The notes under the pieces were generated by a model that did no database searches, had not been told where the DNA came from, and worked only from the letters and a program-made list of their open reading frames with translations. Below, in pieces: positions 724 through 17,661 of a stretch of 39,245 bases of DNA. The stretch is from positions 1 through 39,245 of the forward strand of contig JBGAIN010000073.1 of assembly GCA_044225505.1 (NCBI GenBank), read 5' to 3'. The number at the start of each line of letters is the position of its first letter. Within the stretch, counting starts at the first letter, position 1. Position numbers and translations under genes: made by a program. The DNA comes from Limisphaerales bacterium (GTDB lineage Bacteria; Verrucomicrobiota; Verrucomicrobiia; Limisphaerales; SIBE01).

Positions 724-1784
724 GCCTTACCAAGAACTTATATTGGAGAATGCAGTCCCAGGCCTTGGGAATCCAGCAGTAACGGACAAAGTGCCGTTAC
801 CGAGGTCGATATAGTTCACAACCGGGCTGTCAGGCCCGTTCGATGAGTTTACGGGCGTAGCCTTCTTGGCCTGTCAACAGAAGTAGAGCCCTTGAAATCT
901 AGCGTCTTGCCTGAACGACAAATTCCGGTATTGGATGGCGACCGTTCAGCGATAAGAAACCGTCCTGTCGGCAACAGCTCTCGCGACAACTTGGAGGTGT
1001 TCAAGTTAACGACACGATTAATGATTCGGACTTCATTGGTCTATCCCGAATGTCGATCTTACGGTTGTAGTGCATTACGATAATGCGGCGGAGGAATTCG
1101 CCGACCAACAGCCGCCACTGATCGCTTCCGGGTTCCATTGCGGGACCTAGCCAGCGACGGGTTATTGACCAACATCTGCGCCACCAAAGTCGTCATTGCA
1201 ATCGCGACCTCATCACGGTTCTTCTCCTGTCGCCAAAGCAAATGGCTCCGGCTCAATTACATCGATGAATTTTGTGGAGTGCTTTGCGTTGAGCCTACAG
1301 GCGGCAGCTAGAGCGTCTTTCGGATGCGATCTGTGAATTGGTTAACCTCAGCGGCGCAAAGGTTTAGAAACTTGGTGACAAATGGCACCTGAAGCCGGCA
1401 TTTGGGTTTCCAGCGCGGACTCGGCCTCGTCGAATCCGGCAGCCTTCCGCTAAGGGGTCGTCGAAATGTCTCACAGTTCGACAACAATTTGCGAACGTAG
1501 TGTGCGACATTTCCAAAGAACCGCTTCGCCGAAAGCGCAGCCACCATCGGTATCTCCATCTTTCACTGACGACAGCCTATGTCGGCTCCAGCGACAGCTC
1601 TCCAGTGACAACCTCAAAATCTCGAACTCGCCGTTGCCTCTCGCGTCACTTTTGTCGCTCGAAATGATGGGGTTAATTGAATCATAAAGGATTGAGCTTA
1701 AGCAGGTCACATCAATTGACGTCCTTCTTGGGAGGCTTGGCTCACATTTGCTCCAATGGCTTTTGCTTAGGGAGTTCATTCGGA

Positions 1785-1831
1785 GGTAACCCACACGTGA
1801 CCCACTCCCAGTGGGTTACCAGTGGGTCACC
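1785..1831. repeat. Four copies of a GGTRACCCAC-like 10-mer (2 direct + 2 inverted)
   Basis: ggtaacccac 1785-94, gtgacccact 1797-1806, gtgggttacc 1811-20, agtgggtcac 1821-30. Confidence 0.75.
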
Positions 1832-1895
1832 AGCGAAGGAAGAGGCGATCCAGGGGGGAAGAACATTGAGCGTTATAGGAAGATTATTTGGTTTT

Positions 1896-2966: not shown

Positions 2967-2973
2967 AGACTTG

Positions 2974-3483
2974 TCAGTGGTTGACTTCCGCGGCCAGCCC
3001 ATCGAGATCCAGCGGATGTGTGAACATGGCGAGCCCGCCGTCCTTAGTGCGCGGCCACTGCTCCTGTGGTCGGTCCCAGTAAAGCTCGACGCCGTTGCCA
3101 TCTGGGTCGCGCAGATAGAGCGCCTCGCTCACGCCGTGATCTGCCGCGCCTTCAAGCGAAATGCCAGCGCGGGTGAGGCGGAGGAACGCATCAGCCAGTT
3201 CGGAGCGTGTGGGGTAAAGAATCGCGAGGTGATAAAGTCCGGTCCGGCCGGCCGGTGGCGGCGCCCCGCCCGCGCTCTCCCATGTGTTGAGCCCGATGTG
3301 GTGATGGTAGCCACCAGCAGAGACGAAAGCGGCGTCGCGGCCGAAACGTTGGGTGAGTTGGAAACCCAGCACGTCACGATAAAACGCCAGCGCACGCTCC
3401 AAGTCGGCCACTTTGAGATGCACATGACCAATCCTGACTCCTGGGGCGATCGGCTTGAATGGTTCGCTGGGATTCATTGGCAT
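2974..3483 (-). CDS. VOC/glyoxalase family protein (catechol 2,3-dioxygenase-like)
   Basis: IGHVHLKVADLERALAFY, GGYHHHIGLNTW, GLYHLAILYP, DHGVSEALYLRDPDGNGVELY. Ends 7 bp before the ARH start, suggesting an operon. Confidence 0.93.
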   Translation of the reverse strand: MPMNPSEPFKPIAPGVRIGHVHLKVADLERALAFYRDVLGFQLTQRFGRDAAFVSAGGYHHHIGLNTWESAGGAPPPAGRTGLYHLAILYPTRSELADAFLRLTRAGISLEGAADHGVSEALYLRDPDGNGVELYWDRPQEQWPRTKDGGLAMFTHPLDLDGLAAEVNH

Positions 3484-3772
3484 TTCCTGTCAGCGATCAC
3501 AATGGCCACCATGGTCTTCTGTTGCTGGGTTCTGCCTGCGACCCGGGCGACTCTTACGACGGGCCTGTGATTGCTCCTTCGGTTTGATCTGAATACACCC
3601 ATTGAAGGCAGAAAACAACCGCAACGTCTCGTGCTCACAACGAATGGAACCTCCTAACACTGCTGGTAAAACCGCTCGCTCGGCGTGAAATGGACGAAAA
3701 GGCACCGCTCTTAATGATCGAAAGTTGCCGTAGCGGGCTTTTCCTCCACTAAAATAATGAAACATAGCCGGC

Positions 3773-3907
3773 CTCCAACGCCAGTGCAGTTCCGCAGGGA
3801 TCAACCTTTAAGATCGTCTCCGGTGGCGTTTGGGAAGGAGGAACTCCGGCAGCGTGAATGATGCCAGAAATCACACCAAGCGACGTGGCCTTTTCCAAGA
3901 GAGCATG
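3773..3907 (-). pseudogene. Internal fragment of an SDR-family oxidoreductase
   Basis: HALLEKATSLGVISGIIHAAGVPPSQTPPETILKVDPCGTAL resembles the SDR segment around the NAG/HAAG motif. No Rossmann N-terminus or YxxxK follows. Confidence 0.55.
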
Positions 3908-4334
3908 ATGGGTCTTAAAGCATAATTTGCCTTGTTTGACGCAATGCGTTTCCTCTTCACGTATCTTACAGAAGAATATCGAGAGCGGTTGCAGGGATGC
4001 GACGTTGCAACACTGCAACGTTGCCGACATGCGAGGCTCGTTTCTCCAGATAAACTCGTGGGTAGCCGAGCTGGCGAGCTTTCAGGAGCCTCTCGACTGC
4101 CTTGACATCGTTGGGAGAAGTTCCATCTCTGGCGAAGAGAAGGATTCGAGGCATGCCGTTCGACCCAGGCAGGGAGGCCATAAGTGGCCCGTTTTAGGAT
4201 TGGAATATACTAACCGGCGCCGGTAGATTCCTCAGGAGCATGGATGGGCAGACAAGAGTTTATGCTGAAAAGGACGGACAAATCTCCGCCGGCGAAATAA
4301 GGAGAACCGTTGCATAAAAGGAGTTCGACGTAGA

Positions 4335-4877
4335 ATGTTTGCCACCGTCGTCCATGATTTGAAGAGTCCGGAGAACACGGGCATCATTCTTCGTACCCAC
4401 GTCGCATTTGGCGGCGAGATTTTCGTTATGGTCGGGCCGGAGCCGTGGCGGTTCAAAAAGCGGAGCCAAGCCTTTTCGAGACGACTAGAGAAGGTCAGTG
4501 ATATTGTTTATTTGCCCAACGATGACTCTTTTTTCGAGTGGTGCCGAGCCGAACGATTCACCCCGGTTGCCATTGAGATAGCCGAATCGTCGGCTTTATT
4601 ACCGTCTTTCCAGTTTCCAGAGCGTCCCGCGATCATTGTCGGACATGAAGCGAGCGGCTTGTCCGAGGAGTTCTTGCAGAGGTGTTTGCATGTAGTGACC
4701 ATCCCGCAATTCGGCCCGGTGGGATGTCTGAACGCGGCGGTTTCTTGCAGCATTGCTATCTACGAGCTGAACCGGCGACGTCCATTGGAGAGGGAGATCA
4801 AGGGTCATCAGTTCGCGGTTGCTCCCTCAGAGACACCGGACGGCGTCGGACCAGCGGCTGGAAGGATCGCGGAGTGA
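4335..4877 (+). CDS. TrmH/SpoU family RNA methyltransferase (cassette-borne)
   Basis: SPOUT motifs DLKSPENTGIILRT, IIVGHEASGLS, VTIPQFG..CLNAAVSCSIAIYE. Core site GTTCGAC (4323-29) sits 5 bp before the ATG. Confidence 0.9.
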   Translation: MFATVVHDLKSPENTGIILRTHVAFGGEIFVMVGPEPWRFKKRSQAFSRRLEKVSDIVYLPNDDSFFEWCRAERFTPVAIEIAESSALLPSFQFPERPAIIVGHEASGLSEEFLQRCLHVVTIPQFGPVGCLNAAVSCSIAIYELNRRRPLEREIKGHQFAVAPSETPDGVGPAAGRIAE

Positions 4878-4935
4878 ACGCTTCCATTTCATTTGCTTGC
4901 CTTTGGCTGAGCGTCCCTCAGCCTGATCGTTAGCG
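4845..4935 (+). mobile_element. attC site
   Basis: R'' GTCGGAC, 5 nt, L'' GGCTG(G)AAGGA ... L' TCCCTCAGCC, TGATC, R' GTTAGCG. R'' is complementary (1 mismatch) to GTTCGAC at the cassette start. Confidence 0.72.
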
Positions 4936-5002
4936 TCGCTCGCGTTAATTCTAACTTCAATCCTCCACACCGCATCACACCAACAATCGACAAACACACA
5001 CT

Positions 5003-5365
5003 ATGAGCCAATACATTGACGGATTTGTCCTCTCCATTCCGAAAGCCAAACTCGCCGCCTACAAAAAGCTTGCCACCAAGGCGGCAAAAATCTGGCGCGA
5101 GCACGGTGCTCTCGAATACCGAGAATGCGTCGGTGATGACATGGAGGTCGAGCACATGCTCGCCTTCCCAAAGATTGCGAAGTCCAAACCGGACGAAGTC
5201 GTCATTTTCGCCTATGCTGTATTCGAGTCGCGCAAACATCGCGATGCTACGAACAAGAAGATCATGGCCGACCCGCGCATCGCCGCAATGGTCACCGAAT
5301 CAAAAGCCATTTTTGACTGCAAGCGCATGGCATACGGCGGCTTCAAGACGCTGGTCCAAGTCTGA
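5003..5365 (+). CDS. DUF1428 family protein
   Basis: YIDGFVLSIPK..AYKK...WREHGALEYRECVGDD...FDCKRMAYGGF. Confidence 0.92.
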   Translation: MSQYIDGFVLSIPKAKLAAYKKLATKAAKIWREHGALEYRECVGDDMEVEHMLAFPKIAKSKPDEVVIFAYAVFESRKHRDATNKKIMADPRIAAMVTESKAIFDCKRMAYGGFKTLVQV

Positions 5366-5379
5366 GACGCTGAAGACAA

Positions 5380-5655
5380 ATGACCGCAACGCCCAATGAG
5401 CACATTTGCTTTTTGACCGATGACAACGGGATGGTTCTCACGCTGACGAACATGACGCTCGGCGCAGAATCGGAAGTTCGTTACCCGGCGACTTTCCACA
5501 TCGGCTTCATTCAGCCCACGGAGGCCGATGTTGATCGGATGAACGACCACTTGCGGGCCGACGGCTATGAAGTTCTGCCGCCGTCTCGACAGCGTGGTGC
5601 TTGGACGTTCTATTTCCAAGCGCCTGGAGGGTTTAGCATTGAGGTCCTTGGCTAA
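5380..5655 (+). pseudogene. 5'-truncated VOC family protein
   Basis: C-terminal half YPATFHIGFIQ...WTFYFQAPGGFSIEVL is present. The first betaalphabetabetabeta unit with its His ligand is missing. Confidence 0.65.
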
Positions 5656-5780
5656 GGGGTTCGCGGGCAAGTCGAATAGCACCGGGCCAGTCATGGAGGC
5701 GAACTATTGCTCTGAGCTTCGTTTTCGGAATTGCTCGAAGGAACTGGAGGACCACACCGATGGCATGAACTCGTATTCAA

Positions 5781-5807
5781 CGGCGGTCGCTTACCTTTCT
5801 GTCAGCC
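5781..5807 (+). mobile_element. Degenerate right arm (L'/R') of an attC site
   Basis: GGCGGTCGCTTACCTTTCTGTCAGCC resembles TCGCTCACCTTCACGTTGGGC at 14852-72 and lies 13 bp before ATG 5821. Confidence 0.4.
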
Positions 5808-5820
5808 GAAATGTGCTGTC

Positions 5821-6456
5821 ATGAGCGGGACAACACGCATTGGATTCGTCGGAGCGCCGATATTCTTCGCGGTGATTCCGCTCATCTGCATCCCTGCCGC
5901 CGAGTGGATGGCAGTCGCTCCGCGCGGCGACCAAGTATTCTCGTGGTACGGCATCATTTTTGTCTTTCCCACTCTCGCAGCGGTGCCGATGTTTCTTGCT
6001 GCACTCATTGGCCTTGCCTTCCGGCGCATCCGACGTTTATCCGCTGCCGTTGCGCTGTGTTCAGCGGTTTATTTCGTCGGCTTTTTCGTATCGATTCGCA
6101 TTGGTCAAAACGTCCGGATGCGTGCGTTTCATCAGTTGGCGGAGCGGAGCAAACCACTCACCGTGGCCATCCGCAATTTCGAGCAGAAGTATGGGCGCCC
6201 ACCGGATTCACTTGGAGCCCTCGTGCCAGAGTTCCTCCCGTCGGTCCCGTCGACAGGCATGGCTGCATACCCGGAATACCGTTATTCAACACCGGCAACG
6301 AACTATGATGGTAATCCATGGGTCATTACCGTTTTCACGCCATCCGGCGGCATCAATTTCGATCAATTCATGTATTTTCCACGGACGAATTACCCAAAGC
6401 TAGGCTACGGCGGTTGGGTTGAGCGAGTCGGAGATTGGGCGTATGTGCATGAGTAG
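5821..6456 (+). CDS. Hypothetical membrane protein (about 3 TM helices plus a soluble C-terminal domain)
   Basis: Hydrophobic segments followed by AIRNFEQKYGRPPDSLGALVPEFLPSVP. ATG at 5821. Confidence 0.75.
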   Translation: MSGTTRIGFVGAPIFFAVIPLICIPAAEWMAVAPRGDQVFSWYGIIFVFPTLAAVPMFLAALIGLAFRRIRRLSAAVALCSAVYFVGFFVSIRIGQNVRMRAFHQLAERSKPLTVAIRNFEQKYGRPPDSLGALVPEFLPSVPSTGMAAYPEYRYSTPATNYDGNPWVITVFTPSGGINFDQFMYFPRTNYPKLGYGGWVERVGDWAYVHE

Positions 6457-7341
6457 TGATTGGCGTCACGACTATTAAGTCCGCGGTCGATAGGCAAAAG
6501 CCTACGTGAAGGAGATTTCTTCCATTCCGTGGCATCACCTGTGACAGGCAGCTCATCCTCGACCCATTGTTAAGCTCTGCGGCAGAGTGATGCTCCATGC
6601 TGGGAACCCGGGTTCTACCGATCTCCGTCTGCGACTTCGTACTCAATGGGATTCGAGAAGACACAGGCCTGCTTTGCCTTCTGCAAGCGTCATCACCCGA
6701 GAAACCACCTCCGTGCGTCATTGGATCGTAAACGACCCGGCCTTTGAACTTCTCGGGGTGTTCAGGCTTATAGGTCATCTGCAAATGCACCGAAGAATGC
6801 GACGAGAGATACAGGATGTGTTCGGGTGACCAACCTGTTGGCTTTGTTCTGATCCCTTCCCATAGCTGAGGAATGACCAACGGTAAAATCCCGGCCAGCC
6901 ATGAGGTCGCATTCTGCACCAGGCAATAGTGCGAGCCCGCAGATGGATGGCACACGATCGGCTTAACGCTGTCCGTCGTATTGGAGACCTGGCACAACAC
7001 CCGAATCAGGCGCCTTGCATCCCGGCTGTAATCCTGCGGCTGACCGTTCCGTTGTAACCGCGGTCCGTCAAAAACAATGGGGTGCGTCTGCGATCGTCCG
7101 CCACCCTGGACTCGCGAGGTTTCCAGCAATCCGCTCGACGTCCGTCCACTGCCGCCAGGAGCTTGCCCCGAATTTCTCCGGCCGGTTTGGCCCATGCGGC
7201 TTATAGGCCGGACTCCACATGCAGTGGATAAATGTCTCGGAGCTTCAGAGCCACTTTCGGGATGGGCGTTTCCCAAAATCGGAACGCCCCCTCGGATGGC
7301 GCCTCTGAATTGCGCGGCCATCGCAGCCGTAGGCTGCTGGC

Positions 7342-9792
7342 ATGTTCCTTGCCATCGTGATTGTTCAAACTGTGAACGACTTGCGATTTGCCGTCAGACA
7401 GGTGCTCAGAAACCCAGGTTTCGCCGCGTTGGTGATTTTGACCCTCGCGCTCGGAATCGGCGCGACGTCTGCGGTTTTTAGCCTGATTCAAGGCGTCCTG
7501 TTAACACCTCCCCCCTTTCCCAATCCGGAACGGTTGGTCCTGATCAGTCCTGCCCGCATGGATGGCCAGCGTTACACCCGCGGCTGGCCGGCCGCGCAAT
7601 GGCAAGAATGGCAGACTCAATCGAAGGCTTTTGAGAGCATCGGCGCCTACGGTTGGGTCTTCAATTTCCTCGTCATGCGCGATGGCAGTGAATCCATCGA
7701 AGGAATGCGAGTGACGGAGGATTACTTCAAAGTGGTTGGCGTCACGCCGATGCTGGGCCGTGTCTTTGACGCAGCGGATGCTCTGCCAGATCCTGCCACG
7801 TCGATCATTATCGGTTACGATCTTTGGGAACGCCGCTTTAAGCGCGATCCCCATATCATCGGTCAGACCGTTCAGATTAGCCGGCAGCCGCACCGCCACA
7901 CCATCGTCGGAGTCATGCCGCCAGACGTCCGTTTCTTTCCCTCTCCAAGCGTGGCGCAAGAGCCGAACTACAACGTGGATTCCAAAGTGGACTACTGGAT
8001 TCCCACACGCATTCCCCCAGACCGGTTGAAGGCCCCGCTGGCCAACATTGTCGGCCGCCTGCGGCCAGGCGCGACGCTTAGCCAAGCGCAAGCGGAATTG
8101 ACCGCGCTCACTGCGCGTCAATCCCAGGCCGACAAAGATTTTGCAGGCATTGTTCCCCGGTTGGAATTGCTGGAAACTTTTGCCAATAAAGAAGGCCGCC
8201 GCTTGTTGATGCCGGTCGCCGCCGCAGTGGCGCTCGTCTTTTTGGTAGCCTGCGGGAACGCGGCGGGACTTTTGCTCGCGCGCGGTTTGCAGCGCCAGCA
8301 TCAGTATGCGTTGCGTTCCGCGCTCGGGGCGGGCCCTTGGCAATTGTGTCGGCCGGTCGTGCTCGAGAGTTTGCTGCTGGCTCTGATCGGGGGAGTTTTG
8401 GGCGCTAGTCTTGCGGTTTGGTGCGTCGATGCTCTCAAAGCCACCGCGGGATCGGGAATTCCTCGTCTGGACGCCGTTCGTCTCGGCTGGCCGGTGGCCG
8501 CCTTTTCCGTCCTGGCTGCGATGGTGGCGGGATTGGTGGCCGGGGTTTTGCCCGCCTGGCGCTCGATGCGCCGTGATTCGAGCAACGAGTTGAAAGCGGG
8601 CGGTCGCACCGCCAGCGTTGGTCGCCTGGAACGACGTCTTTTGAGCGGAGTGGCCTCTGCCCAGGTCGCTTTGACACTGGCGTTATTGGTGGGCGCCGGT
8701 TTGCTCATTCAAACAGTTGACTCGCTGGCGAAGATTCGGCCGGGTTACGACACTCACAATATCCTAACGATGAGCGTGACTACCGTCGGCACCAATTGGC
8801 TTGAGTTTCACACCCAGGCTCTCGATCGGGTCAGCCAGTTGCCGGGGGTTAAAGCTGCTGCGTTTGGCTGGGGAGTGCCTCTCACCGGAAACAAGTGGGA
8901 ACTTAATTTTGAGATGGACGGCCAGCCGGGCGGCTCTGCCATCAAGGATCAACTCACTCTTTTGAGCCGCTCCGTGACGCCGGATTATTTTGACGCGCTC
9001 GGCCTTAAACTGGTCGAGGGCCGCGCGTTTCGATCCACGGATAATCAGCAAGCGCCGCGTGTGGTCATCCTGAATCGAGCCGCCGCCGACCGCTTCTTCC
9101 CTGGCGGGCGGGCGCTCGGGCGAAAGCTAAAATTTTCCACGCTCGACACCAACACGATGGAGATCGTCGGGATCCTCGCCAATGCACGGACCGACGCGCT
9201 GACCGCGGAGGCTGAACTGGAGGTCTATTTTCCTTTCTGGCAAAACGGTGCGTTTTCAAAGCATCTGGTGATCCGCACCCATTCAGACCCGAGGAGGATG
9301 GCCAACGCGATCGAGAAGGAACTGCGCGCCATCGACCCGACCGTCTCGGTCGAGGGGATAAAAACCCTGGAAGAGATTCGCGCCGCGTCGGTGGCTTCGC
9401 GAACCTTCGCCATGAAACTTCTGAGCGCTTTTGCCTTTGCCGCGTGCCTGCTCGCCACCGTTGGGATTTATGGTGTGCTCTCCCTGGCCGCGAGTTCACG
9501 GCAGACAGAGATCGCGATTCGCATGGCGATTGGGGCGCAACGCGCCGACGTCATTCGCTTGATGCTCGTGGACGCCATTCGCCTGGCCGCGCTGGGGATT
9601 GGGGTCGGTATTTTGATCTCGCTGGCGCTGGCCGCCGGTTTGAGAACTTACTTATTCGGCATTGGCCCGACGGATCCCGGAACGTTGCTTGGCATGATCA
9701 CCGTCCTGGTGCTGATCACCCTGGCAACCGCATGGATCCCGGCCTGGCGCGCCGCCCGAACCGACCCACTCGCCGCCTTCCGCGCCGACTAA
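7342..9792 (+). CDS. ABC permease, duplicated MacB/FtsX type (ADOP family)
   Basis: DLRFAVRQVLRNPGF..ILTLALGIGATSAVFS, LVACGNAAGLLLARG, RSALGA, EIAIRMAIGAQRADV, PAWRAARTDP. Start may be GTG 7372. No ATPase gene is adjacent. Confidence 0.95.
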   Translation: MFLAIVIVQTVNDLRFAVRQVLRNPGFAALVILTLALGIGATSAVFSLIQGVLLTPPPFPNPERLVLISPARMDGQRYTRGWPAAQWQEWQTQSKAFESIGAYGWVFNFLVMRDGSESIEGMRVTEDYFKVVGVTPMLGRVFDAADALPDPATSIIIGYDLWERRFKRDPHIIGQTVQISRQPHRHTIVGVMPPDVRFFPSPSVAQEPNYNVDSKVDYWIPTRIPPDRLKAPLANIVGRLRPGATLSQAQAELTALTARQSQADKDFAGIVPRLELLETFANKEGRRLLMPVAAAVALVFLVACGNAAGLLLARGLQRQHQYALRSALGAGPWQLCRPVVLESLLLALIGGVLGASLAVWCVDALKATAGSGIPRLDAVRLGWPVAAFSVLAAMVAGLVAGVLPAWRSMRRDSSNELKAGGRTASVGRLERRLLSGVASAQVALTLALLVGAGLLIQTVDSLAKIRPGYDTHNILTMSVTTVGTNWLEFHTQALDRVSQLPGVKAAAFGWGVPLTGNKWELNFEMDGQPGGSAIKDQLTLLSRSVTPDYFDALGLKLVEGRAFRSTDNQQAPRVVILNRAAADRFFPGGRALGRKLKFSTLDTNTMEIVGILANARTDALTAEAELEVYFPFWQNGAFSKHLVIRTHSDPRRMANAIEKELRAIDPTVSVEGIKTLEEIRAASVASRTFAMKLLSAFAFAACLLATVGIYGVLSLAASSRQTEIAIRMAIGAQRADVIRLMLVDAIRLAALGIGVGILISLALAAGLRTYLFGIGPTDPGTLLGMITVLVLITLATAWIPAWRAARTDPLAAFRAD

Positions 9793-9826
9793 ACTGCATC
9801 GGCATTAAGCTCTCGGGGCTGGCAGA

Positions 9827-9901
9827 GTGGCAGCGGCGGGACGCCGTTGGCAGGGAATTCCGCTGCTTCATGGCCAGTCAGAGCCGGGACGGCTCTGCCA
9901 C
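9827..9901. repeat. REP-like inverted doublet
   Basis: GTGG-CAGCGGC-gggac-GCCGTTG (9827-49) and CAGAGCC-gggac-GGCTCTG-CCAC (9879-9901), followed by CGANNN x5 (9918-47). Confidence 0.65.
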
Positions 9902-9961
9902 TTTGAACCTGACAACCCGATAGCGATAGCGACCCCGACTTCGACCGCAGCCGGAACTGAG

Positions 9962-10054
9962 CGCTAACAAATCACTCCAGCGGATGCCGGGAGAGCGTTG
10001 CGGTCGCCGAGGGATCGGTCCTTGGCCAGGCACCGCTGAGTTTTGTCGTCAGGC
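9962..10054 (+). mobile_element. attC site
   Basis: R'' CGCTAAC, AAATC, then ACTC(C)AGCGG(A)TGCC pairing with GGCACCGCTGAGT (two extrahelical bases), TTTGTC, R' GTCAGGC (GTT mutated to GTC). Confidence 0.85.
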
Positions 10055-10104
10055 AAAAAGCTTCGCCTTGTTTGCACAAATTCCGTGGCGAGGTGTCAAA
10101 GATC

Positions 10105-10476
10105 ATGGATATGAAGCGAATACTCCTAGTCATCGCGGCGGTTTCCCTGATTATCGTGGTAGAGCATGACGTTCGCTCGCGTCGGGATGCGGGTCGTGGT
10201 GTCACGTCAGCCAAGATTCTCATGGCAGCGAAGGGCTATGCCGCGAGTTTGAAGGCGAAAGGGGTTCCGGTCCCCGACTCAGTCTCTGCCGAGACTTTGA
10301 TTGACCAAGGACTGCTCACTAGTCCTAAGGTGAGCGGATTCACCGGCGCCGGGGTGACCGTCAATCTGGCCGCTGATCCGAGCCGTCCACGGGACGTTGT
10401 CTTCTGGGCAAAGGGCGAGAATGACACGGAGTTTATGGCATTGGTGGACGGAAAGGTTCAGCAAGTTCGAAAATGA
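10105..10476 (+). CDS. Hypothetical exported/membrane-anchored protein (cassette)
   Basis: N-terminal hydrophobic helix, C-terminal ALVDGKVQ, flanked by attC sites. Confidence 0.7.
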   Translation: MDMKRILLVIAAVSLIIVVEHDVRSRRDAGRGVTSAKILMAAKGYAASLKAKGVPVPDSVSAETLIDQGLLTSPKVSGFTGAGVTVNLAADPSRPRDVVFWAKGENDTEFMALVDGKVQQVRK

Positions 10477-10521
10477 TTGTGGCAATCGGAGCGTTCTGAC
10501 TGCAAGAAAGCAGTGTCTTTA

Positions 10522-10590
10522 GGAACTGACGGCGAACTCTGACCCGCTCGCCCCTGCGAGCTTGCGTTTCCAGCGTCAGTCGTTCAGCTT
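10522..10590 (+). mobile_element. attC site with eroded left end
   Basis: GGAACTGACG ... CGTCAGTCGTTCAGCTTCGT-GTTCGGC. R'' is not recognisable. Confidence 0.55.
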
Positions 10591-10611
10591 CGTGTTCGGC
10601 GGATTGAAGCG

Positions 10612-11055
10612 ATGAAAATCACACGCGCAAAGATCATTGCCTTTTGGTCGCTGTTTCTTTTGTTGTGTCTCTTGCTCTGGCTTTCATGGCGTCATCGGAT
10701 TCTGTGGCTTTCCATCTTTATTCCTGCATGGGCGATTCTGGGTTTGATCAAGCCGCCGTCTTCGCCCATGCCGCGAGCATTGAAGGTGTTGTTTTTATCG
10801 GTATTCATTGTCTTTGCCCTATCGGTGGTCGTGCACGGGATCTTGTATCCTTCCTCGGCCGAGCTTTACCTTGTGGCAAAGATAGCGTGTTGGGGACTCT
10901 TGGTTCCGGCGCTTTGCGGCAAAGCCTATTTTGACTATCGGCAATTCACGGCAGTGCAGAGTGAGAGTGCCGAGCCCGGCGACCCAGCGAACGGGAACCA
11001 GCCCATTCGCTTGGCGACAAATTCAACGTCGTCGGCGCCTGGCTCCCGTCCCTGA
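10612..11055 (+). CDS. Hypothetical 4-TM membrane protein (cassette); C-terminal tail reads through attC
   Basis: Four hydrophobic helices. The last ~28 codons (AEPGDPANGNQPIRLATNSTSSAPGSRP) are attC sequence. Confidence 0.7.
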   Translation: MKITRAKIIAFWSLFLLLCLLLWLSWRHRILWLSIFIPAWAILGLIKPPSSPMPRALKVLFLSVFIVFALSVVVHGILYPSSAELYLVAKIACWGLLVPALCGKAYFDYRQFTAVQSESAEPGDPANGNQPIRLATNSTSSAPGSRP

Positions 11056-11069
11056 CCTTGGTGTTCGAC
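10969..11069 (+). mobile_element. attC site
   Basis: R'' GCCGAGC (1 mismatch to the complement of upstream GTTCGGC). CAGCGA(A)CGGGAACCAG pairs with CTGGCTCCCGTCCCTG. R' GTTCGAC. Confidence 0.8.
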
Positions 11070-11109
11070 ATCGGCATAGTCTTCCGCGATAACACGAGAT
11101 TAATTGGGT

Positions 11110-11349
11110 ATGGCCACAAAAGGTAAAGTACCGAGGCAGCACACCGAGTATCACAAGGACGGGAGTGTTTGGGGCAAGGGGATGATGATCGACGGCGTGC
11201 CCGCTGGATATTGGGAATGGTTCAGAAAAGACGGCACGAAGCTCCGGTCGGGGCACTTCGAAAATGGACTACAGGTCGGGGAGTGGATTACTTACGATAA
11301 GACGGGCCAGAAGTATAAAGTGACCAATATCAAGCCTAAGGCGAAGTAG
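11110..11349 (+). CDS. MORN-variant repeat / YwqK-antitoxin-like small protein (cassette)
   Basis: YHKDGSVWGKGMMIDGVPAGYWEWFRKDGTKLRSGHFENGLQVGEWITYDKTG. R''-like ACCGAAC lies 3 bp after the stop. Confidence 0.82.
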   Translation: MATKGKVPRQHTEYHKDGSVWGKGMMIDGVPAGYWEWFRKDGTKLRSGHFENGLQVGEWITYDKTGQKYKVTNIKPKAK

Positions 11350-11368
11350 TATACCGAACAAACCGGCG

Positions 11369-11707
11369 ATGGTCGCTGCATTCCGCGAGCGCTTCCCGGG
11401 CGTGCCGATCGAGCAAAACACGGTTGAATCGTCTGAGTTTTTCGACCGGACCTTCAATGGTGTGCTTGCTTGGGGGCTCCTGTTCTTGCTCAAGCCATTA
11501 GCTCAAGCGCTTGTCATCGAGAAGGTGGCGGGCGCGCTCCGCCCTGGAGGGCGTTTCCTCTTCACGGCCCCTCACGAGCCGCTCGAATGGCTGGATGCGA
11601 TGACCGACCGTCAGTCGCAGTCACTCGGGGCACAAACCTAGGAGCGAATGCTGCGCGATGCCGGTCTAACGTGGGTGGCCGAAGCGCAGGACGAGGGCCC
11701 GTTTTGA
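11369..11707 (+). pseudogene. Class I SAM-dependent methyltransferase fragment
   Basis: MVAAFRERFP...FNGVLAWGLLF...ALRPGGRFLFT. Motif I (GxG) is missing. In-frame TAG at 11639, and homology-like sequence continues (ERMLRDAGL...DEG). Confidence 0.7.
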
Positions 11708-11790
11708 AGTTGCTTGGGAAGTTCGGAGGGCTACATTGATAGCGTGAGCACGTTTTCCTCAGCAGTCGCTTACATAAATCGTTCGCGCCC

Positions 11791-12564
11791 ATGAATTCCC
11801 CTCTCGATTGGCAGCGAACACGCGGTTTTACCTTGATCGAGCTGCTAGTCGTCGTGGCAATCGTGGCAATTCTGGCGGCACTGCTGCTGCCCGCATTAAA
11901 CCGGTCGAAGGAGGCAGCCCGATCGACTCGGTGCAAAAGTAATCTCCGTCAGCTCGGATTTGCATTGCACCTCTATGTGCAGGACAACCAGGATCGCTAT
12001 CCGCGAGAAAGCATCTCGCCTGTGTCATTCACACGTTCTGGCCTTTGGACAGTAGCACTGAGTTCGACCTTTACCGGAACTGGCAATGGACTGTTCTGTC
12101 CTAGCCGCGTGCGGCAAAGCGTCGGGGGGCAATTCCCAAATGACCAGGTGTTTTGGTCCGGCGTGGCTTACGACTACAATACGCAAGGCACAGTTCGATC
12201 CCGGGAATCGCATTTTGGTCTGGCGTGGATTCGGAGCAGCCCTGGAGCTTTGGTAAGTCACGACGTAATCGAGAATCAAATCGCGTCTCCCGCCGAGATG
12301 ATTGCGCTAACCGAACCTGATCTACCATCGCCTCTGATAGCCGCCTCCGGGGAAAGGGTCGAGTTATCCATCGTCAGCCTCAGCATGGGCCGGTCCACGA
12401 ACTGGACGGGCGCTATTCACAACGGCTCCGGTAACGGTTTACTATGCGATGGCCACACCGAGTCTCGAAAGCAACGTTTGTGGCAGGAGCGCAACGACAG
12501 TAAAAGGCGTCGTTGGAATATCGATAACGAGCCCCATCCGGAGACATGGCCGGCCCAAGATTGA
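11791..12564 (+). CDS. Prepilin-type N-terminal cleavage/methylation protein (DUF1559 / H-X9-DG family)
   Basis: [29 protein letters not shown]...[10 protein letters not shown]-terminal [13 protein letters not shown]. Confidence 0.93.
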
Positions 12565-12584
12565 CGTTCGATCATGAAAACGGG

Positions 12585-12680
12585 CCCGAACCTGGCAGTG
12601 GCGAGAACAGCGGTGGACGGACGCTCTTCGCGGCGGCCTACGCGGGGGATCAACGCTACCGATCACTTTGGTCGTTCGGC
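12585..12680 (+). mobile_element. attC site
   Basis: R'' CCCGAAC 20 bp after the prepilin stop. AGTGG.. pairs with ..TCACT, then TTGGTC and R' GTTCGGC. Arm pairing is only partial. Confidence 0.65.
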
Positions 12681-12752
12681 ATGAAGCGCAGCGTCGCATT
12701 CCGTTTGGCTTTCGGCATGGTAGTGAGTGGGCTACGTGGCTGCGCCGCTCCG

Positions 12753-12841
12753 TTCCGACCGACGCTGGCGACAAACTCGGTTCACCCGCTTGCGCTCCGA
12801 GCGGGTTCTCCAGCACCAGTCGCGGGTCTTGATCGTTGGGC
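12753..12841 (+). mobile_element. Degenerate attC site
   Basis: TTCCGAC..GCTGG ... ACCCGCT/AGCGGGT inner hairpin ... CCAGC..TTGATC-GTTGGGC. Confidence 0.55.
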
Positions 12842-12871
12842 AAACTAGAACGTCGGAATTCCCCGGACACA

Positions 12872-13714
12872 ATGCGCCTCCTGACACCTGCTGACGAACC
12901 TCTCTTCAATGCGTTTCTCGCCTCGCACCGGGACAGCTCGATGTTCCTGCGCGCGAACGCGCGGCGCGCCGGACTCACCTACCGGGGAGGGGAGAATGAG
13001 GCGACCTACGTTGGAGTTTTTCGTGGTGACCGAATCGCTGGCATCGCGGCCCACTGCTGGAACGGCATGGTGCTTCTGCAGGCTCCCGAGCACGCGGCGG
13101 AGTTAGCACGGGCGTGTGTGGATCTGAGCGGCCGAGCCGTCACCGGGCTCGTGGGGCCGCTCGAACAGGTTCAACTGGCGCGGACTGCCCTGCAGATCGC
13201 CGCCGCGGATCTGGCGTTGGATGGCGCCGAGGGGCTCTACGCCCTCGACTTATCGGAGCTCATCGTTCCTGAAGCGCTGTCGAACGGAGCGGTGGTGTGC
13301 CGACCGCCGCACGCAGAAGAACGCGACACACTCTGCGCATGGCGGATAGCCTATGACATCGAGATCCTGGGTGCCACGGATTCAGAGGAACATCGGCAGC
13401 GCTCCGCGCGTTTTCTCGACGCGCAGATCGCAGAAGGAAACGCGGGGGTTGCGATTTCGGATCGCGTGCTTGTGTCGCTGTCGGCTTTCAACGCCAGCCT
13501 CCCAGATATCGTGCAACTGGGCGGCATCTACACGCCACCCGAGTTTCGCGGGCGCGGCTTTGCCAAGGCTGCCGTGGCGGCGTCGCTTCTGGTGGCCCGC
13601 GATCGGGGAGCGTCTCGGGCCGTCTTGTTCACCAACAATCCGAGCGCTGTCCGGACCTACGCCGCGATCGGATTCAAGCGAATTGGGGACTATTCGCTCC
13701 TCCTGCTACGATGA
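12872..13714 (+). CDS. GNAT family N-acetyltransferase (cassette)
   Basis: VQLGGIYTPPEFRGRGFAKAAV...LFTNNPSAVRTYAAIGF. Flanked by GTTGGGC (12835) and its exact complement GCCCAAC (13739). Confidence 0.92.
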   Translation: MRLLTPADEPLFNAFLASHRDSSMFLRANARRAGLTYRGGENEATYVGVFRGDRIAGIAAHCWNGMVLLQAPEHAAELARACVDLSGRAVTGLVGPLEQVQLARTALQIAAADLALDGAEGLYALDLSELIVPEALSNGAVVCRPPHAEERDTLCAWRIAYDIEILGATDSEEHRQRSARFLDAQIAEGNAGVAISDRVLVSLSAFNASLPDIVQLGGIYTPPEFRGRGFAKAAVAASLLVARDRGASRAVLFTNNPSAVRTYAAIGFKRIGDYSLLLLR

Positions 13715-13738
13715 CACCGCGATACGAGCCGGAGCGCT

Positions 13739-13776
13739 GCCCAACAAGTCGGGACAACGAGTCAGTGGCGAGAACA
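13739..13776 (+). mobile_element. Left arm remnant of an attC site
   Basis: GCCCAAC R''. CAGTGGCGAGAACA is identical to 14 bp of the 12585 attC. Confidence 0.5.
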
Positions 13777-13960
13777 TGAAAAAGTCGGCTAGCGACCGCC
13801 TCTCGCTTTTGGATTGTGATAAACGAACCGGAATGGGCATGCTTCGCCCCAGCCCACTTGGTAAGGAGCGATTTATGGAGCGACAAATGCCTAGATCGTT
13901 GGCGAAATTCAACAACCAGGCGTTGCGTGAACAGGGTTCGGAAACGGCGACCCGCTCCCG

Positions 13961-14446
13961 GTGTTCAATGAGATTGTGAAGGCAACGCGGAGATTCAGGC
14001 TGCTGGCGGTTACAGCAATCGGACTGGCGATGACATGGCTATGGGCCGCCCCGCCGGTGACGAAATCTCTTCTCTACATTCATTCGAACGGATGGACGGA
14101 TGCTGATCTTGTGAGGCATATCTGGCCGGTCCGTCTGGTCCAACCCGGATGGGTCACCAGCCCGCCTCAGTATGACTACCTGCGCTGGACACAGGCTGAG
14201 ACACTGGCCCGCCTCTCTGTAGTGTTCATTGCTTGGATCGCAAGTGTCGGGGGAATCGTCCGAACATCACTCCGCCGTCAGCCATTCAACCGGCCCAGCA
14301 GGTCAAAACGACGAATGAGCCGCGAGAAGATCAACCTGGAAATTAAGCCGCGCGGAATGACGCTAAGCATTACGCATGGTCGTTTGCTATTGCTCTCGGG
14401 CATCTCGCGCTTCCTCGTCAAAGCTCCTAGAATCCAAGCATGCTAG
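13961..14446 (+). CDS. Hypothetical membrane protein (boundaries uncertain)
   Basis: Two hydrophobic helices; the C-terminal third looks like run-on sequence. Confidence 0.45.
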   Translation: MFNEIVKATRRFRLLAVTAIGLAMTWLWAAPPVTKSLLYIHSNGWTDADLVRHIWPVRLVQPGWVTSPPQYDYLRWTQAETLARLSVVFIAWIASVGGIVRTSLRRQPFNRPSRSKRRMSREKINLEIKPRGMTLSITHGRLLLLSGISRFLVKAPRIQAC

Positions 14447-14658
14447 AACCAGCGCAGATCGATCGAATGTCGACGGCGGAGCGTTTGCAGGCGATGGAGC
14501 AACTCTGGGAGGCACTCTCCAGATCCCCCTCCGACGTGCCGTCACCGCGTTGGCAAGGAGAGGTATTGGCTGAGAGGAAGGCTCGGGCGGAACGGGGTGA
14601 GGTCAAGTTCTTAACCTTGGAACAGTTACGAGCACGTCTGAGGCCCGACTCGCGATGA
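14440..14658 (+). CDS. Addiction module antitoxin (TIGR02574-like)
   Basis: MSTAERLQAMEQLWEAL...PSPRWQGEVLAERKAR...FLTLEQLRARL; ATGA overlap with the downstream toxin remnant. Confidence 0.88.
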   Translation: MLEPAQIDRMSTAERLQAMEQLWEALSRSPSDVPSPRWQGEVLAERKARAERGEVKFLTLEQLRARLRPDSR

Positions 14659-14779
14659 CTGTCGTCGTCCTGGAGGATGCGGGGAGGATTTGGAGGCGGA
14701 CACGGCTTGTGTCTATGCCATTCTCGACATGCGGAAAGATCCTCGGGGATTGGAGTCGGCTTTGCAGAAAAGAAGATAG
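14655..14779 (+). pseudogene. RelE/ParE toxin remnant (frameshift plus internal deletion)
   Basis: MTVVVLEDA, frameshift, then EDLEA joined directly to the C-terminus DTACVYAILDMRKDPRGLESALQKRR*. About 41 codons in total versus ~100 typical. Confidence 0.75.
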
Positions 14780-14872
14780 CGAACCGGTCGGTGGAGCGAG
14801 TAGCGGCGGCCGAGCACTTCGGTCGAGATTGATCGTCGCGGGCTGTTGCTATCGCTCACCTTCACGTTGGGC
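14778..14872 (+). mobile_element. attC site (best preserved)
   Basis: R'' AGCGAAC overlaps the toxin stop, then CGGTC. GGTG(G)AGCGA(G)TAGCGGCGGCC pairs with GGCTGTTGCTATCGCTCACC, then TTCAC and R' GTTGGGC. Confidence 0.88.
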
Positions 14873-14959
14873 GTCATAGGCGCCGCACCAGTAATTGCTC
14901 GCCTTTGGGACTACGGCTGGCTTTGGCACGATGTCGTGAGTCTACCTTCCAGTGCTTCG

Positions 14960-15165
14960 ATTACCGGCCACCGTGTCTTGACACATGAGGAAGCGCAGCT
15001 TCGGCATGGACGCAATGTCAGGCATTGAGTCGTCCTTGGCGTCGAATGCCAACCAACCCATGCTGGGTAGATCAACGATGGCCGCAAGGCCCTGAGCCGT
15101 GACTGCAACTTTGCTGTCATCCACGTTCAGGGCAAAGTGTCCATCGAGCCCAACCAGTATAGAAA
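14960..15165 (-). pseudogene. Leucine-rich-repeat-like gene fragment
   Basis: GLDGHFALNVDDSKVAVTAQGLAAIVDLPSMGWL..DDSMPDIASMPKLRFLMCQDT shows LRR-like periodicity. No credible start or end. Confidence 0.4.
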
Positions 15166-15183
15166 ACCCGTGGGGCTGGCCGG

Positions 15184-15855
15184 TCACACGTGGCCACTTA
15201 CCGGTCGATGGTTGGACCCATCTGGCCACGCGCAGATGCAGACTCGATTGCCCGCCCGGTCGGCGAGCGTCCAGTGCGATGGCGCATGCGACTCATCGAC
15301 GATACGTCCTCCCGCTGCAATCGCTGCCTCGAGCCGTGCTTTGAGATGTTCGTGCGCAACAGACACGTCGATGTGCATCGCGTGTCGCAATGGCTTGGCC
15401 TGGGCGAGTTCCTGCATCCAGATGGTTGATCCGTGCCCAAGTGGGTCGACCGCATTGTCGTCGGCCATCGGGGTATAGCCGAGGACAGCGCGCCAAAAGC
15501 CGACGTCAATGGCATCGCGCTTCGCCGCGATCGCGACCTGCACTTCCTGCACGGCCGCACGCTCGGGAACTGCACCGTATTCCCGAGCGACTGCTGAAAC
15601 GGCCCGCGCGAGCTCGACGTGCCATGGCTCGAGGCTCCAAACGTCGCGGCTGAGCCGGACGGTGACGCGACTATCGGCAAGTGTGAGCAGCAGTCCCGCG
15701 CCCGCAATTCCTGGCGTCTTCGCTACCGCCTCGGCCAAGCGGGCCGCCTCGCTCAGCGAACCGACGCGAAAGACGGCGGTCGCGCCCCCGTGCAATATCA
15801 CCCAGTCAGCAACACCCTCAGCGGCGAGGAAACCATGCCAACCTTGCTCGCTCAT
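15184..15855 (-). CDS. Pterin-4a-carbinolamine dehydratase-like domain + VOC/glyoxalase fusion
   Basis: N-half ...VTVRL...ELARAVSAVARE; C-half FWRAVLGY, DPLGHG, AMHIDVSV, AGGRIV, WTLADRAGN. GGAGG lies 6 nt before ATG 15855. Confidence 0.82.
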   Translation of the reverse strand: MSEQGWHGFLAAEGVADWVILHGGATAVFRVGSLSEAARLAEAVAKTPGIAGAGLLLTLADSRVTVRLSRDVWSLEPWHVELARAVSAVAREYGAVPERAAVQEVQVAIAAKRDAIDVGFWRAVLGYTPMADDNAVDPLGHGSTIWMQELAQAKPLRHAMHIDVSVAHEHLKARLEAAIAAGGRIVDESHAPSHWTLADRAGNRVCICAWPDGSNHRPVSGHV

Positions 15856-16200
15856 GCGCATCCTCCATTTTTATACGGCGGTCGGCAGCCGATCGACATC
15901 CACATCCTCAGAGGTGCAAATAGCACGCTCGCTAGCAGGGCCGTGATGGCGGATCCGATCAGGAGTCGTTTACGGAATGGCTTCATTCGAATTAGCGCTT
16001 GGATAATGGATCTCAGTCAATAGACACCGGGCCACGATGATTTTATATAATTCATCGACGAGTTCAACTTCGCCAAGTTCCACGGCCACTTCAATAGGCT
16101 CTGACGATACGAGACTCCAGAAACTTCTCCAGGGGCTCTGGCAAACGGCTTGCCGTTCGCCCGGCTTTGCAGCACGTTGCTTTCTAGTATACCCGTGGCG

Positions 16201-16294
16201 ACTCAACCGATCCGTGGAGCGAAGCACGCTGGGTGACCTTTTTGCGGCGGCGAATGCTCGGGGGCGCCGCTATCGCTCACGTTTGTTGTGAAGC
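16201..16294 (+). mobile_element. attC site with mutated core
   Basis: R'' ACTCAAC, CGATC, CGTG(G)AGCGA pairing with TCGCTCACG, TTTGTT, R' GTGAAGC. Confidence 0.65.
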
Positions 16295-16326
16295 GTTGCA
16301 TTGCGGCCCATTTGAACAGACAGTTT

Positions 16327-16824
16327 ATGAATCTATTTCGACATATTATCACCACTGCAGTTTGCAGTGTCGTCTCTTTTGTCGCTATCGCAGGCGAACA
16401 AGCGGGCGCCCAAGACAAATGCGTTGCAAACCAACCCGTTGCTGTAGAACTGCAACGTCTTCAAGGAACATGGCAGGGAGTTATGGTGGGCCAGGAGAAA
16501 GATGGTCCCGTTACCATCACGATTACCGGCAATTCACTCCACTTTCACCGGGACCCAAAGTTTTGGTTTAAGGCAACATTCACACAGCCGGCCGGAACAG
16601 ACCTAAATCAACTCCACGCCACCATCAAAGATTCTGCTCCGGAACAGAAAGAGAGCGTCGGCAAAGGGGTCGTCGCTATCTACAAGATAGAAGATAGGAC
16701 ACTGACCTTGGTTCCATTAGCTGGCGGTGACGAAGAGACACCGAAAAGCTTTAAAGCCATTGAAGATAAAGGATTGCAGCGCTACGAACTGCGAAAGGTG
16801 GAACCTCAGAAGAAGAGTGCTTAG
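16327..16824 (+). CDS. Secreted TIGR03067-like domain protein
   Basis: Signal peptide, ELQRLQGTWQGV, AIYKIEDRTLTL. Confidence 0.75.
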   Translation: MNLFRHIITTAVCSVVSFVAIAGEQAGAQDKCVANQPVAVELQRLQGTWQGVMVGQEKDGPVTITITGNSLHFHRDPKFWFKATFTQPAGTDLNQLHATIKDSAPEQKESVGKGVVAIYKIEDRTLTLVPLAGGDEETPKSFKAIEDKGLQRYELRKVEPQKKSA

Positions 16825-17011
16825 CACCCAAAAGCGACCGAACCGGAAACGTCTGACCGTGCGTATGCGGACGCCGCATTTGCGCTCGCTTGGGGTCGCC
16901 CTGCAACTGCCGATGACGCGGCCGCGAGCGTCATTGGAGGTACGCCTCCGTGTCGTGGATGCCAGCGTGAGTGTTTCGTTCACAATCTTGACGAAACGTC
17001 TTGGCCAGCGC

Positions 17012-17039
17012 TTGCCGGGGTTTTCCGCTGCCGTATAAT
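17012..17039 (+). promoter_or_regulatory. Putative sigma70 promoter of the ECF gene
   Basis: TTGCCG-16 nt-TATAAT, ending 10 nt before ATG 17050 (near-leaderless, no RBS). Confidence 0.5.
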
Positions 17040-17049
17040 CCAGGCCGTA

Positions 17050-17610
17050 ATGACTGGAGTCACCCAGATCCTGCAGCGCGCGGAGCAAGGGGATCCCCAA
17101 GCGGCGGCGGAGTTGTTGCCGCTGGTTTACGATGAACTCCGTAAGCTGGCGGGTCAGAAGTTGGCGCGCGAGACGCCTGGGCAAACGCTGCAAGCGACCG
17201 CCTTGGTTCATGAAGCCTGGTTGCGTCTGGGGGGCGATGATCAACCGGCGTGGCAAAACCGGGCGCATTTTTTTGCGGCAGCGGCGGAAGCGATGAGGCG
17301 GGTCCTCATTGACCGAGCACGGCGGCGAAAGGCCATTCGTCATGGAGGCATGGCCGTGAAGACCGAGTTAGAGGCAATTGAACTGGCGGTTCCGTTGGAT
17401 GACGATCGTCTGCTGGCGCTGCATGAGGCTCTCGATCAGTTGGCGGAACACGACCCTGCGAAGGCGGAGTTGGTCAAATTGCGGTTTTTTGTCGGTCTAA
17501 AGATACCGGAAGCGGCCGCCGTCCTTGGCCTGTCGCCGACAACGGCCAAGCGTCATTGGGTTTACGCTCAGGCGTGGTTGTATCGGCGCATCAAGGCGCT
17601 CGCGACGTGA
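17050..17610 (+). CDS. ECF sigma factor, TIGR02999 family
   Basis: VTQIL...LLPLVYDELRKLA...TLQATALVHEAWLRL...NRAHFFAAAAEAMRRVLID...VKLRFFVGL...A.AWL. Confidence 0.96.
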   Translation: MTGVTQILQRAEQGDPQAAAELLPLVYDELRKLAGQKLARETPGQTLQATALVHEAWLRLGGDDQPAWQNRAHFFAAAAEAMRRVLIDRARRRKAIRHGGMAVKTELEAIELAVPLDDDRLLALHEALDQLAEHDPAKAELVKLRFFVGLKIPEAAAVLGLSPTTAKRHWVYAQAWLYRRIKALAT

Positions 17611-17661
17611 AAAGCCAACGGGTCCGCGATGTGACGCAGATGGCAGCCTCAGCGCCTTGGA

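Follow-up and report, generated by a model that had tools for sequence, protein, structure and literature searches.

A stretch of 39,245 nucleotides from a Limisphaerales bacterium (hereafter the window, which is the entire contig C152 of a 9.0-Mb genome in 342 contigs, 95% complete and 4.7% contaminated) carries an array of attC sites and cassette genes that starts at position 4323. The array is probably what survives of two or more chromosomal integrons in tandem that lost their integrase genes (intI) by deletion but retained their promoter/attI regions, and it is now mostly frozen and eroding. Two such promoter/attI regions, here termed heads, have been kept, one at the start of the array (head A) and one inside it (head B). 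An earlier note, made from the DNA letters alone, had described an integrase-less, decaying attC cluster without integron integrases (CALIN), and this description holds, given the covariance-model matches, the lack of any local IntI match and the presence of both cores in only two of the six best sites; the head kept twice and an intact integrase on another contig had been overlooked.

Candidate attC-like sites were first gathered on other contigs with a scan for pairing only, and a covariance model (R1) was made from 23 attC sites on other contigs, with the window sites excluded. In this training set 89% of cells are paired and 19 of 23 pairs have changed on both sides, values that concern sites pre-chosen for pairing. 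Applied to the window, R1 gave 14 matches at E ≤ 5, among them six sites (starting at 4845, 9962, 10969, 12585, 14778 and 16201; Table 1) with scores of 26–48 bits and E values of 4e-11 to 5e-5, all on the bottom strand. A second detector, a weight-matrix-plus-pairing scan trained on 24 non-window sites, returned the identical six at scores of ≥28, a level reached by 78 positions in the genome versus 3 in the reversed genome. Genome-wide, R1 matched 66 of 150 candidates scored, training sites counted, and the total is ∼75 attC sites in 28 clusters. Neighbouring attC pairs are co-oriented in every case (47/47), as are the six window sites, in agreement with the orientation described earlier, and the same class of site flanks cassettes beside the intact intI of this genome. 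The R″/L″/L′/R′ layout is found in all six. These data indicate that the six window attC sites are real.

The earlier note had listed eight full sites and four half sites. Besides the six above (all with R1 E values below 1e-4), the proposed sites at 10522 and 12753 gave no R1 match at E ≤ 5 while keeping a recognisable right arm, and these two, like most of the 'half sites', are remnants of decay. True left arms lie at 11353 and 13739, and 5781 forms the right part of a decayed attC at 5681–5807; 4323 is no attC remnant at all, as described below. Similarly, the statement that sites lie just after a stop codon applies to 9962, 12585 and 14778, whereas the reading frame of the gene extends into the site at 4845 and 10969. 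Not seen previously were head B, the right arm that ends at 11787, the decayed site of 14293–14388 and a possible left arm at 16819, the last placed by eye. An exact-repeat search of the window revealed no attC family, the sole pair being the arms at 5746 and 11725, and an Rfam scan of positions 1–20000 gave four matches at E ≤ 5, all at chance level and none relevant.

In the R1 alignment the two extrahelical positions are unpaired for 9962 and 14778, as had been claimed, and the L stem, unpaired spacer and extrahelical bases are displayed by 9962, 14778 and 4845. Free folding of the bottom strands, a check that the earlier note had suggested, recovered the L stem for 9962 and 14778, but without significant z-scores; indeed, all eight strands tested folded no better than shuffled sequences (z −1.41 to +0.99), which speaks against a picture of strong hairpins, and a predicted R-box pairing probability above 0.1 was obtained for only two of ten window sites. 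Poor free folding fits decay of the sites. Both the AAC and GTT cores are intact in two of the six best window sites (12585 and 14778) versus 52 of 69 elsewhere (p=0.048, a contrast inflated by the choice of training sites), and only 14778 has an intact L stem as well. Since several cassette genes are also fragments, the proposal of a cassette reservoir is doubtful. The suggestion that the sites came from diverse donors is likewise unsupported, because four of ten tested (4845, 9962, 10478–10600 and 14293) have relatives of 70–85% identity on other contigs and the attC style of the window is present in 12 of 12 genomes of the family.

The folding results, together with the 4.7% contamination of the bin and the position of three head-bearing contigs at the 92nd–95th percentile of tetranucleotide distance, are what could be said for the sites not being integron-derived at all, but instead dispersed palindromic repeats or an artefact of assembly or binning. 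This is very improbable in view of the 47 co-oriented pairs, the occurrence of an equal site class beside intact intI, the contigs of other studies that cover parts of the array and the ordinary composition of the window contig (42nd percentile of the genome). A lack of covariance-model hits, of R/L box pairing or of a shared orientation, any of which the earlier note had taken to speak against a cassette array, was in no case found outright.

The evidence for retained platforms comes from the DNA in front of the first cassettes. On contig C311, the interval from a broken intI to the first cassette shares 77% identity with window 4196–4298, and a copy on C292 has 74% identity to window 4186–4318; this long head family adjoins the start of intI in C311, C292 and, in two other genomes, L046 and L047. 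An alignment of four head copies breaks at a GTT that corresponds to 4323 in the window, and this break, combined with homology to intI-adjacent DNA, identifies 4323 as the attI crossover of head A rather than half an attC. In order to avoid circularity, a head profile was made from the intI-adjacent copies only (C311, C292, L046 and L047); searched against the whole genome, it matched head A with E=6e-19 and head B, which was first detected inside the array by profile search, with E=1.8e-6. A profile from other genomes only gave 6e-6 and 1.8e-3, respectively, and the reversed genome yielded no head-profile match at E ≤ 1. The short unit in which the long head ends is also, on C60 and in several other genomes, the sequence that directly separates intI from the first cassette. 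At its 5′ end, a TTG–18 nt–TA spacing is conserved across head copies, which in head A reads TTGGAA (4200–4205), 18 nt and TAGATT (4224–4229), a putative promoter.

In the whole genome, 11 heads could be aligned on the crossover; they are of two types and occupy about nine places, some being stacked within arrays, and three lie inside or just behind other arrays (head B, C122 and C222). The head cores agree with the first attC behind them at 32 of 40 positions versus a mean of 19.2 (p=1e-4; 10 heads, some partners placed by eye), a test that left out C204, with its degenerate core, and the incomplete heads of C280, C166, C330 and C293. In the window, the R′ of head A matches the R″ of its first attC at 6/7 positions, whereas head B matches its own at only 4/7. 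Once an integrase has inserted a cassette, the R′ before the gene should complement the R″ behind it. Within the window, these brackets match at 22 of 28 variable bases versus a permutation mean of 14.9 (p=0.0016) in the 7-pair version used here, three of the ten window pairs having been placed by eye, and elsewhere in the genome at 75 of 84 versus a mean of 44 (21 pairs). The cassettes were thus inserted in the manner of an integron integrase.

These heads also bear on whether the cluster formed without a local integron, through cassette insertion at attG sites or the transfer of an array fragment by rearrangement. Insertion at attG is a published route for small CALINs (10.1101/2022.09.11.507474), and the block at 9917–13739 has no head of its own and starts at a palindromic repeat. 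However, in front of the first cassette stands a 140-bp element with homology to intI-adjacent attI regions, which attG insertion would not supply, and the same applies behind 13936. For the blocks behind 4323 and 13936 such an origin is largely refuted, and for the array as a whole it has little to recommend it. The arrays formed at attG resemble the present one in that cassettes lie far from any integrase, but they use unrelated genomic sites, whereas the window insertion points are homologous attI heads (10.1101/2022.09.11.507474).

Other observations on the heads were made in passing. The long head looks like tandem short attI units, with two to four copies of a 12-base motif (L042, L160, L180, L184 and C339), an appearance that recalls the direct repeats of attI1. 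A GGACA-N7-TGTCC palindrome is conserved between intI and the promoter-like element (C311, C292, L042, L046 and L047) and is a candidate regulator site; a LexA box was considered for the conserved head motif and dropped, as the motif was not seen upstream of either lexA gene. Two head homologues, at C280:66282–66424 and C166:18397–18474, lack a GTT crossover and a following attC and precede ordinary genes; each may be a cassette promoter that was preserved to serve a fixed gene. The attI-like position at 21126, despite its high score, was discarded because it is the A-rich terminus of a LamG gene, and an R″ candidate at 14259 that matches head B at 7/7 positions was not used because it lies within a reading frame.

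No tyrosine recombinase or intI relic was found in the 39-kb window with tblastn or an 11-sequence IntI profile, which agrees with the earlier note. The genome search that it had called for located one intact intI, on contig C60, plus several relics. The C60 protein scores 268 bits with TIGR02249 against a cut-off of 265, aligns over residues 10–308 to PDB 2A3V with the IntI-specific insertion included and, read by eye, presumably carries the catalytic R-K-H-R-H-Y; eight of its first ten relatives listed are labelled Verrucomicrobiota or Limisphaerales. A marker family of Verrucomicrobia gave only a weak partial match, and the phylum was assigned from these integrase relatives and from Atlas taxa. 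Beside the heads of this genome, intI is present in graded states: intact (C60b), a full-length pseudogene with three stops and a frameshift (C311), the 5′ third (C60a) and stubs (C162 and C292), with no intI detected at six heads (C152 twice, C204, C222, C122 and C339). The C311 integrase, in two main pieces, matches those of L042, L046 and L047 at 57–68% and C60 IntI at 40–51%, and the subgroup of integrases associated with the long head is represented in this genome only by that pseudogene. Since C60 IntI belongs to another subgroup, new insertions at the window heads would probably be inefficient; non-cognate attI/IntI pairs are in general inefficient (PMC8946536).

The arrays of C122 and C201 contain recombinases that might have been the missing integrases, but this was rejected, as their TIGR02249 matches fall into two pieces and score far below the cut-off, and the C201 recombinase adjoins an IS91-type transposase gene. 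Both belong to elements (C201 ∼700–3398, locus L033, and C122 ∼45411–48199, locus L032) in which an Xer-like tyrosine recombinase gene is followed by an IS91-type transposase gene, the C201 copy matching PF04986 and PF14319. In reversed orientation, these elements sit precisely on the AAC within the R″ box of an attC, and their removal on paper restores the attC. An insertion sequence next to an attC has been described for ISShvi3 (PMC9229058).

The reading of the window as tandem integrons with lost integrases would involve the following steps. Through attC × attI recombination, an integron integrase would have inserted cassettes singly at attI, at 4323 in head A and at 13936 in head B, behind a cassette promoter. 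Deletion would later have removed the intI genes while leaving promoter and attI in place; the permease gene and its neighbouring repeat would have come into the middle of the array, and deletions may have joined cassettes and produced the half sites. The joint between the 13739 arm and head B was probably made by a deletion that removed the rest of an attC plus a nested intI. Contig C60 displays the undeleted state, with the intact integron of C60b directly behind the array of C60a. The most that C60 IntI could do at present is to excise cassettes lying between those few sites that have kept their fold, 14778 being the best of them. Transcription of intact genes close to head A may continue.

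Several points weigh against this reconstruction. No intI relic lies beside either window head, so that local deletion is deduced from other loci, and next to the L046 and L047 heads intI seems to be interrupted too (split matches). The head A hexamers fail a consensus promoter scan and those of head B are decayed, while the proximal attI unit alone is a weak signal, ranking 46 and 16 among 78,408 window positions. With an assembly that is 95% complete and in 342 contigs, a cognate intact intI may be unassembled. Finally, the left flank matched 6 of 31 related genomes and none across the locus; as no relative shares the locus, the ancestral state is not seen.

Examination of those 31 genomes revealed attC matches in 28, including all 12 family members, and an integron integrase (E ≤ 1e-40) in 13, among them 6 of the 12 family members and neither of the two from the same genus. 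Heads without an IntI match in the 1.1–7.7 kb of upstream DNA were encountered at seven loci in G001, G002, G006, G007 and G010. This count was cut to four genomes, since one G010 copy lies at a contig edge, the G006 and second G010 matches are weak (E values of 4e-4 to 1.4e-3) and no attC match was found behind L158, L181 or L183; orphan heads in four related genomes are firm. Of 16 array loci examined, 13 showed no head, heads being present in 1/8 loci of G002 and 2/8 of G001 by the head models used. One same-genus genome (96% complete) has one head and 19 attC matches with no integron integrase found, which indicates that heads can persist without any enzyme. A DNA search with head A matched 2 of 301 genomes of the order, its own included.

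A further subject is a mini-cassette of ∼250 bp or shorter, an internally deleted PF05635 four-helix-bundle gene with inverted-repeat ends and more than 15 copies, whose carriers include window 9917–9961, C60, C311, C162, C209, C273, C114, C221, C82, C132, C252, C324, C148, C298 and others. A near-complete relative matches PF05635. Three heads, representing both types (C311, C162 and C60a), have the mini-cassette as their first cassette, and it behaves like a selfish or regulatory cassette.

This shared first cassette, the unrelated contexts of the 11 heads (three of which lie within or immediately behind other arrays), the intact integron nested behind an array on C60 and the orphan heads of four related genomes could also be accommodated by a distributed working integron, in which heads spread as nested integrons or portable modules and a single intact IntI serves many orphan attI in trans. 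The integron of this family, whose integrases have their closest relatives in Verrucomicrobiota, would then be a genome-wide network: an integron behind another array's attC could be excised as a giant cassette and reinserted elsewhere, with intI lost afterwards. A hint in this direction comes from C311, where the first cassette is 97.2% identical to another copy while the adjacent intI has three stops against 0.5–1.1 expected (P(≥3)=0.015–0.10), which hints that the cassette arrived after that integrase had died. Gene conversion among mini-cassette copies accounts for this hint equally well, however, the nearest copies of window cassettes and sites are only 70–90% identical and hence old, heads A and B are decayed, and the same-genus genome keeps its head and 19 attC matches with no integrase found. 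Both the distributed integron and the giant-cassette route seem unlikely on balance, although clearly less so than the attG or repeat alternatives. Should the network exist, the retained promoter and attI would be extra docking and expression sites, one integrase would feed about a dozen orphan heads, and many 'CALINs' would be live satellite integrons, recognisable only by lineage-specific attI models.

The array was also compared with known systems. It is a CALIN (PMC4889954) in having a cluster of attC sites detected by covariance model, at least two of them co-oriented and bracketing genes, with intI elsewhere in the genome, no neighbouring integron integrase and no pseudogene nearby; it is not a complete integron, since upstream of head A there is a short-chain dehydrogenase/reductase (SDR) gene fragment and no IntI match. 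According to that survey, half of CALINs have intI elsewhere in the genome, 95% are without a pseudogene nearby (intI pseudogenes lie near only 15 of 279 CALINs), and Verrucomicrobia are listed among the phyla with integrons. The window array differs in retaining two promoter/attI heads. Because the survey matched only class 1–3 attI, and exactly, such heads would be invisible to it, and its 4-kb rule would split the array at the permease (PMC4889954). Chromosomal integrons of Xanthomonas similarly display repeated integrase loss, frozen arrays and CALINs said to be mobilisable in trans, but there one ancestral ilvD locus carries intI, whereas here 11 heads of two types occupy about nine places (10.1101/2025.06.18.660453). 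Delta-attI-type cassettes of mobile integrons also place attI-derived sequence within an array; head B differs from these as a whole ∼140-bp chromosomal promoter-plus-attI region, apparently left by deletion of a nested intI (PMC12901181). Among taxon-specific attC models, none is listed for Verrucomicrobia in the available part of PMC8352920.

No account of attI heads retained in CALINs, or of integrons in this order, was found in a search that left most subscription journals outside, and the supplements of PMC4889954 may list such genomes. CALINs as such are already known; 95% lack an intI pseudogene, and attG insertion is the proposed alternative origin (PMC4889954; 10.1101/2022.09.11.507474). 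Anatomically, the stacked heads that were retained are evidence for integrase loss as the route: where an attI head survives, the scar of the lost platform is directly readable, and since surviving heads and all stages from intact to absent intI occur in one genome, lineage-specific attI models can sort CALINs by origin. The genome, with one integrase, two head types and 11 heads, is additionally a test set for the use of orphan attI in trans.

The array (Table 1) has flanks of 4.8 kb and 23 kb on the contig and falls into three blocks. Block 1 (4335–6456, behind head A) comprises the SpoU, DUF1428 and truncated glyoxalase genes and a cassette gene without Pfam match; it is separated by the permease and the repetitive extragenic palindromic (REP)-like repeat from block 2, which starts with the mini-cassette end at 9917 and continues, over six cassettes in whole or remnant form, as far as the GNAT gene and the 13739 arm. 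Block 3 extends from head B to ∼16840. The right arm of the decayed site at 10478–10600 is 77–84% identical to seven attC right arms on C122, C132, C156, C219 and C311, and that ending at 11787 is 73% like the 5746–5794 arm. The putative broken partner gene beside the antitoxin gene has no family match. The array cargo is ordinary: PADLOC matched none of 11 cargo proteins, and resistance-family matches are weak and all below cut-off.

Table 1. Features of the window between the SDR fragment and the end of the array.
Feature	Position	Strand	Evidence or remark
SDR oxidoreductase gene fragment	3749–4030	−	NF005395 E=8.5e-12 over 46 aa; at the place where a divergent intI would stand
Head A, promoter-like element and attI, crossover G/TTCGAC at 4323	4186–4329	+	Homology to intI-proximal regions
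SpoU-family RNA methyltransferase cassette gene	4335–4877	+	PF00588 E=5e-22
attC, R″ core now GAC	4845–4935	+	R1 38.7 bits; R″ vs head A core 6/7
DUF1428 gene	5003–5365	+	PF07237; no attC before following glyoxalase gene
Glyoxalase gene, 5′-truncated	5380–5655	+	PF00903, model positions 60–121 only
Decayed 127-bp attC, contains earlier half site 5781	5681–5807	+	R1 14 bits, E=0.11
Cassette gene, no attC behind	5821–6456	+	No Pfam match; unnamed Atlas clusters at 0.96–0.97
ADOP-family permease gene, 2.45 kb, non-cassette	7342–9792	+	TIGR03434 above cut-off
REP-like palindromic repeat	9813–9913		9 further genomic matches at E<1e-3
Multicopy mini-cassette 3′ end, four-helix-bundle (23S IVP family) origin	9917–9961	+	84–92% identity, 11 places, 8 other contigs
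attC, both extrahelical bases, R′ core GTC	9962–10054	+	R1 48.4 bits; 82–85% identical to C162, C330 sites
Cassette gene	10072–10476	+	No Pfam match; unnamed Atlas clusters, Verrucomicrobiota commonest phylum
Decayed 126-bp-class attC (earlier ∼10522), right arm kept	10478–10600	+	No R1 match
Small membrane protein cassette gene	10612–10971	+	Second copy on C187, 90% over 302 nt
attC, R″ core now AGC	10969–11069	+	R1 33.7 bits
Cassette gene with MORN-like repeat	11104–11349	+	PF07661 E=3e-4, below cut-off
Left attC arm fused to methyltransferase fragment, then lone right arm	11353–11787	+	PF13649 partial; R′ 11781–11787
Prepilin-type DUF1559 protein cassette gene	11791–12564	+	PF07963, PF07596
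attC, both cores intact, L stem damaged	12585–12680	+	R1 26.2 bits
Decayed attC (earlier 12753) behind ∼60-bp gene stub	12744–12841	+	Score 23.4, within null range
GNAT acetyltransferase cassette gene	12836–13714	+	PF00583, PF08445
Left attC arm, joined to head B via short shared word	13739–13760	+	R″ vs upstream R′ 7/7
Head B, second, more decayed promoter/attI head, crossover G/TTCGGA at 13936	13804–13942	+	Head profiles
Decayed 96-bp-class attC	14293–14388	+	72–79% identical to C156, C216, C314 sites
Addiction-module antitoxin gene and putative broken partner gene	14440–14778	+	PF09720 E=7e-14; partner from position only
attC, best preserved of all: cores, L stem and two extrahelical positions all intact	14778–14872	+	R1 44.9 bits
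Glyoxalase-like gene, antisense	15184–15861	−	PF18029
attC, R′ core now GTG	16201–16294	+	R1 27.5 bits
Final cassette, encoding a TIGR03067-like protein, plus possible left-arm relic at 16819	16288–16840	+	TIGR03067 E=7.5e-7, below cut-off; relic by eye

Where labels exist for the sequencing runs that carry most of the stretch, these name bioreactor or activated-sludge metagenomes, and no RNA run is among those listed as carrying it. Contigs of other studies cover 4947–10708, 12305–13997 and 13980–16367, the first of which indicates that the junction of block 1, permease and block 2 is real. In run X6, cover is zero at ∼13840–14400, with no contig joining across. No joint at attC or attI positions was seen in contigs of four runs from four studies; as contigs drop rare variants, this is no evidence of inactivity.

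Elsewhere in the window, 14885–14960 (76 bp) is 79% identical to C290:10533–10608, ∼600 bp from an attC match there, and is probably a shared cassette remnant. At 17050–20034, an extracytoplasmic function (ECF) sigma factor gene and a Ser/Thr kinase gene are convergent, whereas such pairs are usually co-oriented. A short run of 8-nt tandem repeats lies between two genes at 32298–32395, and an open-ended gene at the contig end (37748–39244) contains five repeats of ∼110 residues (327–333 nt; PPC-like domains).

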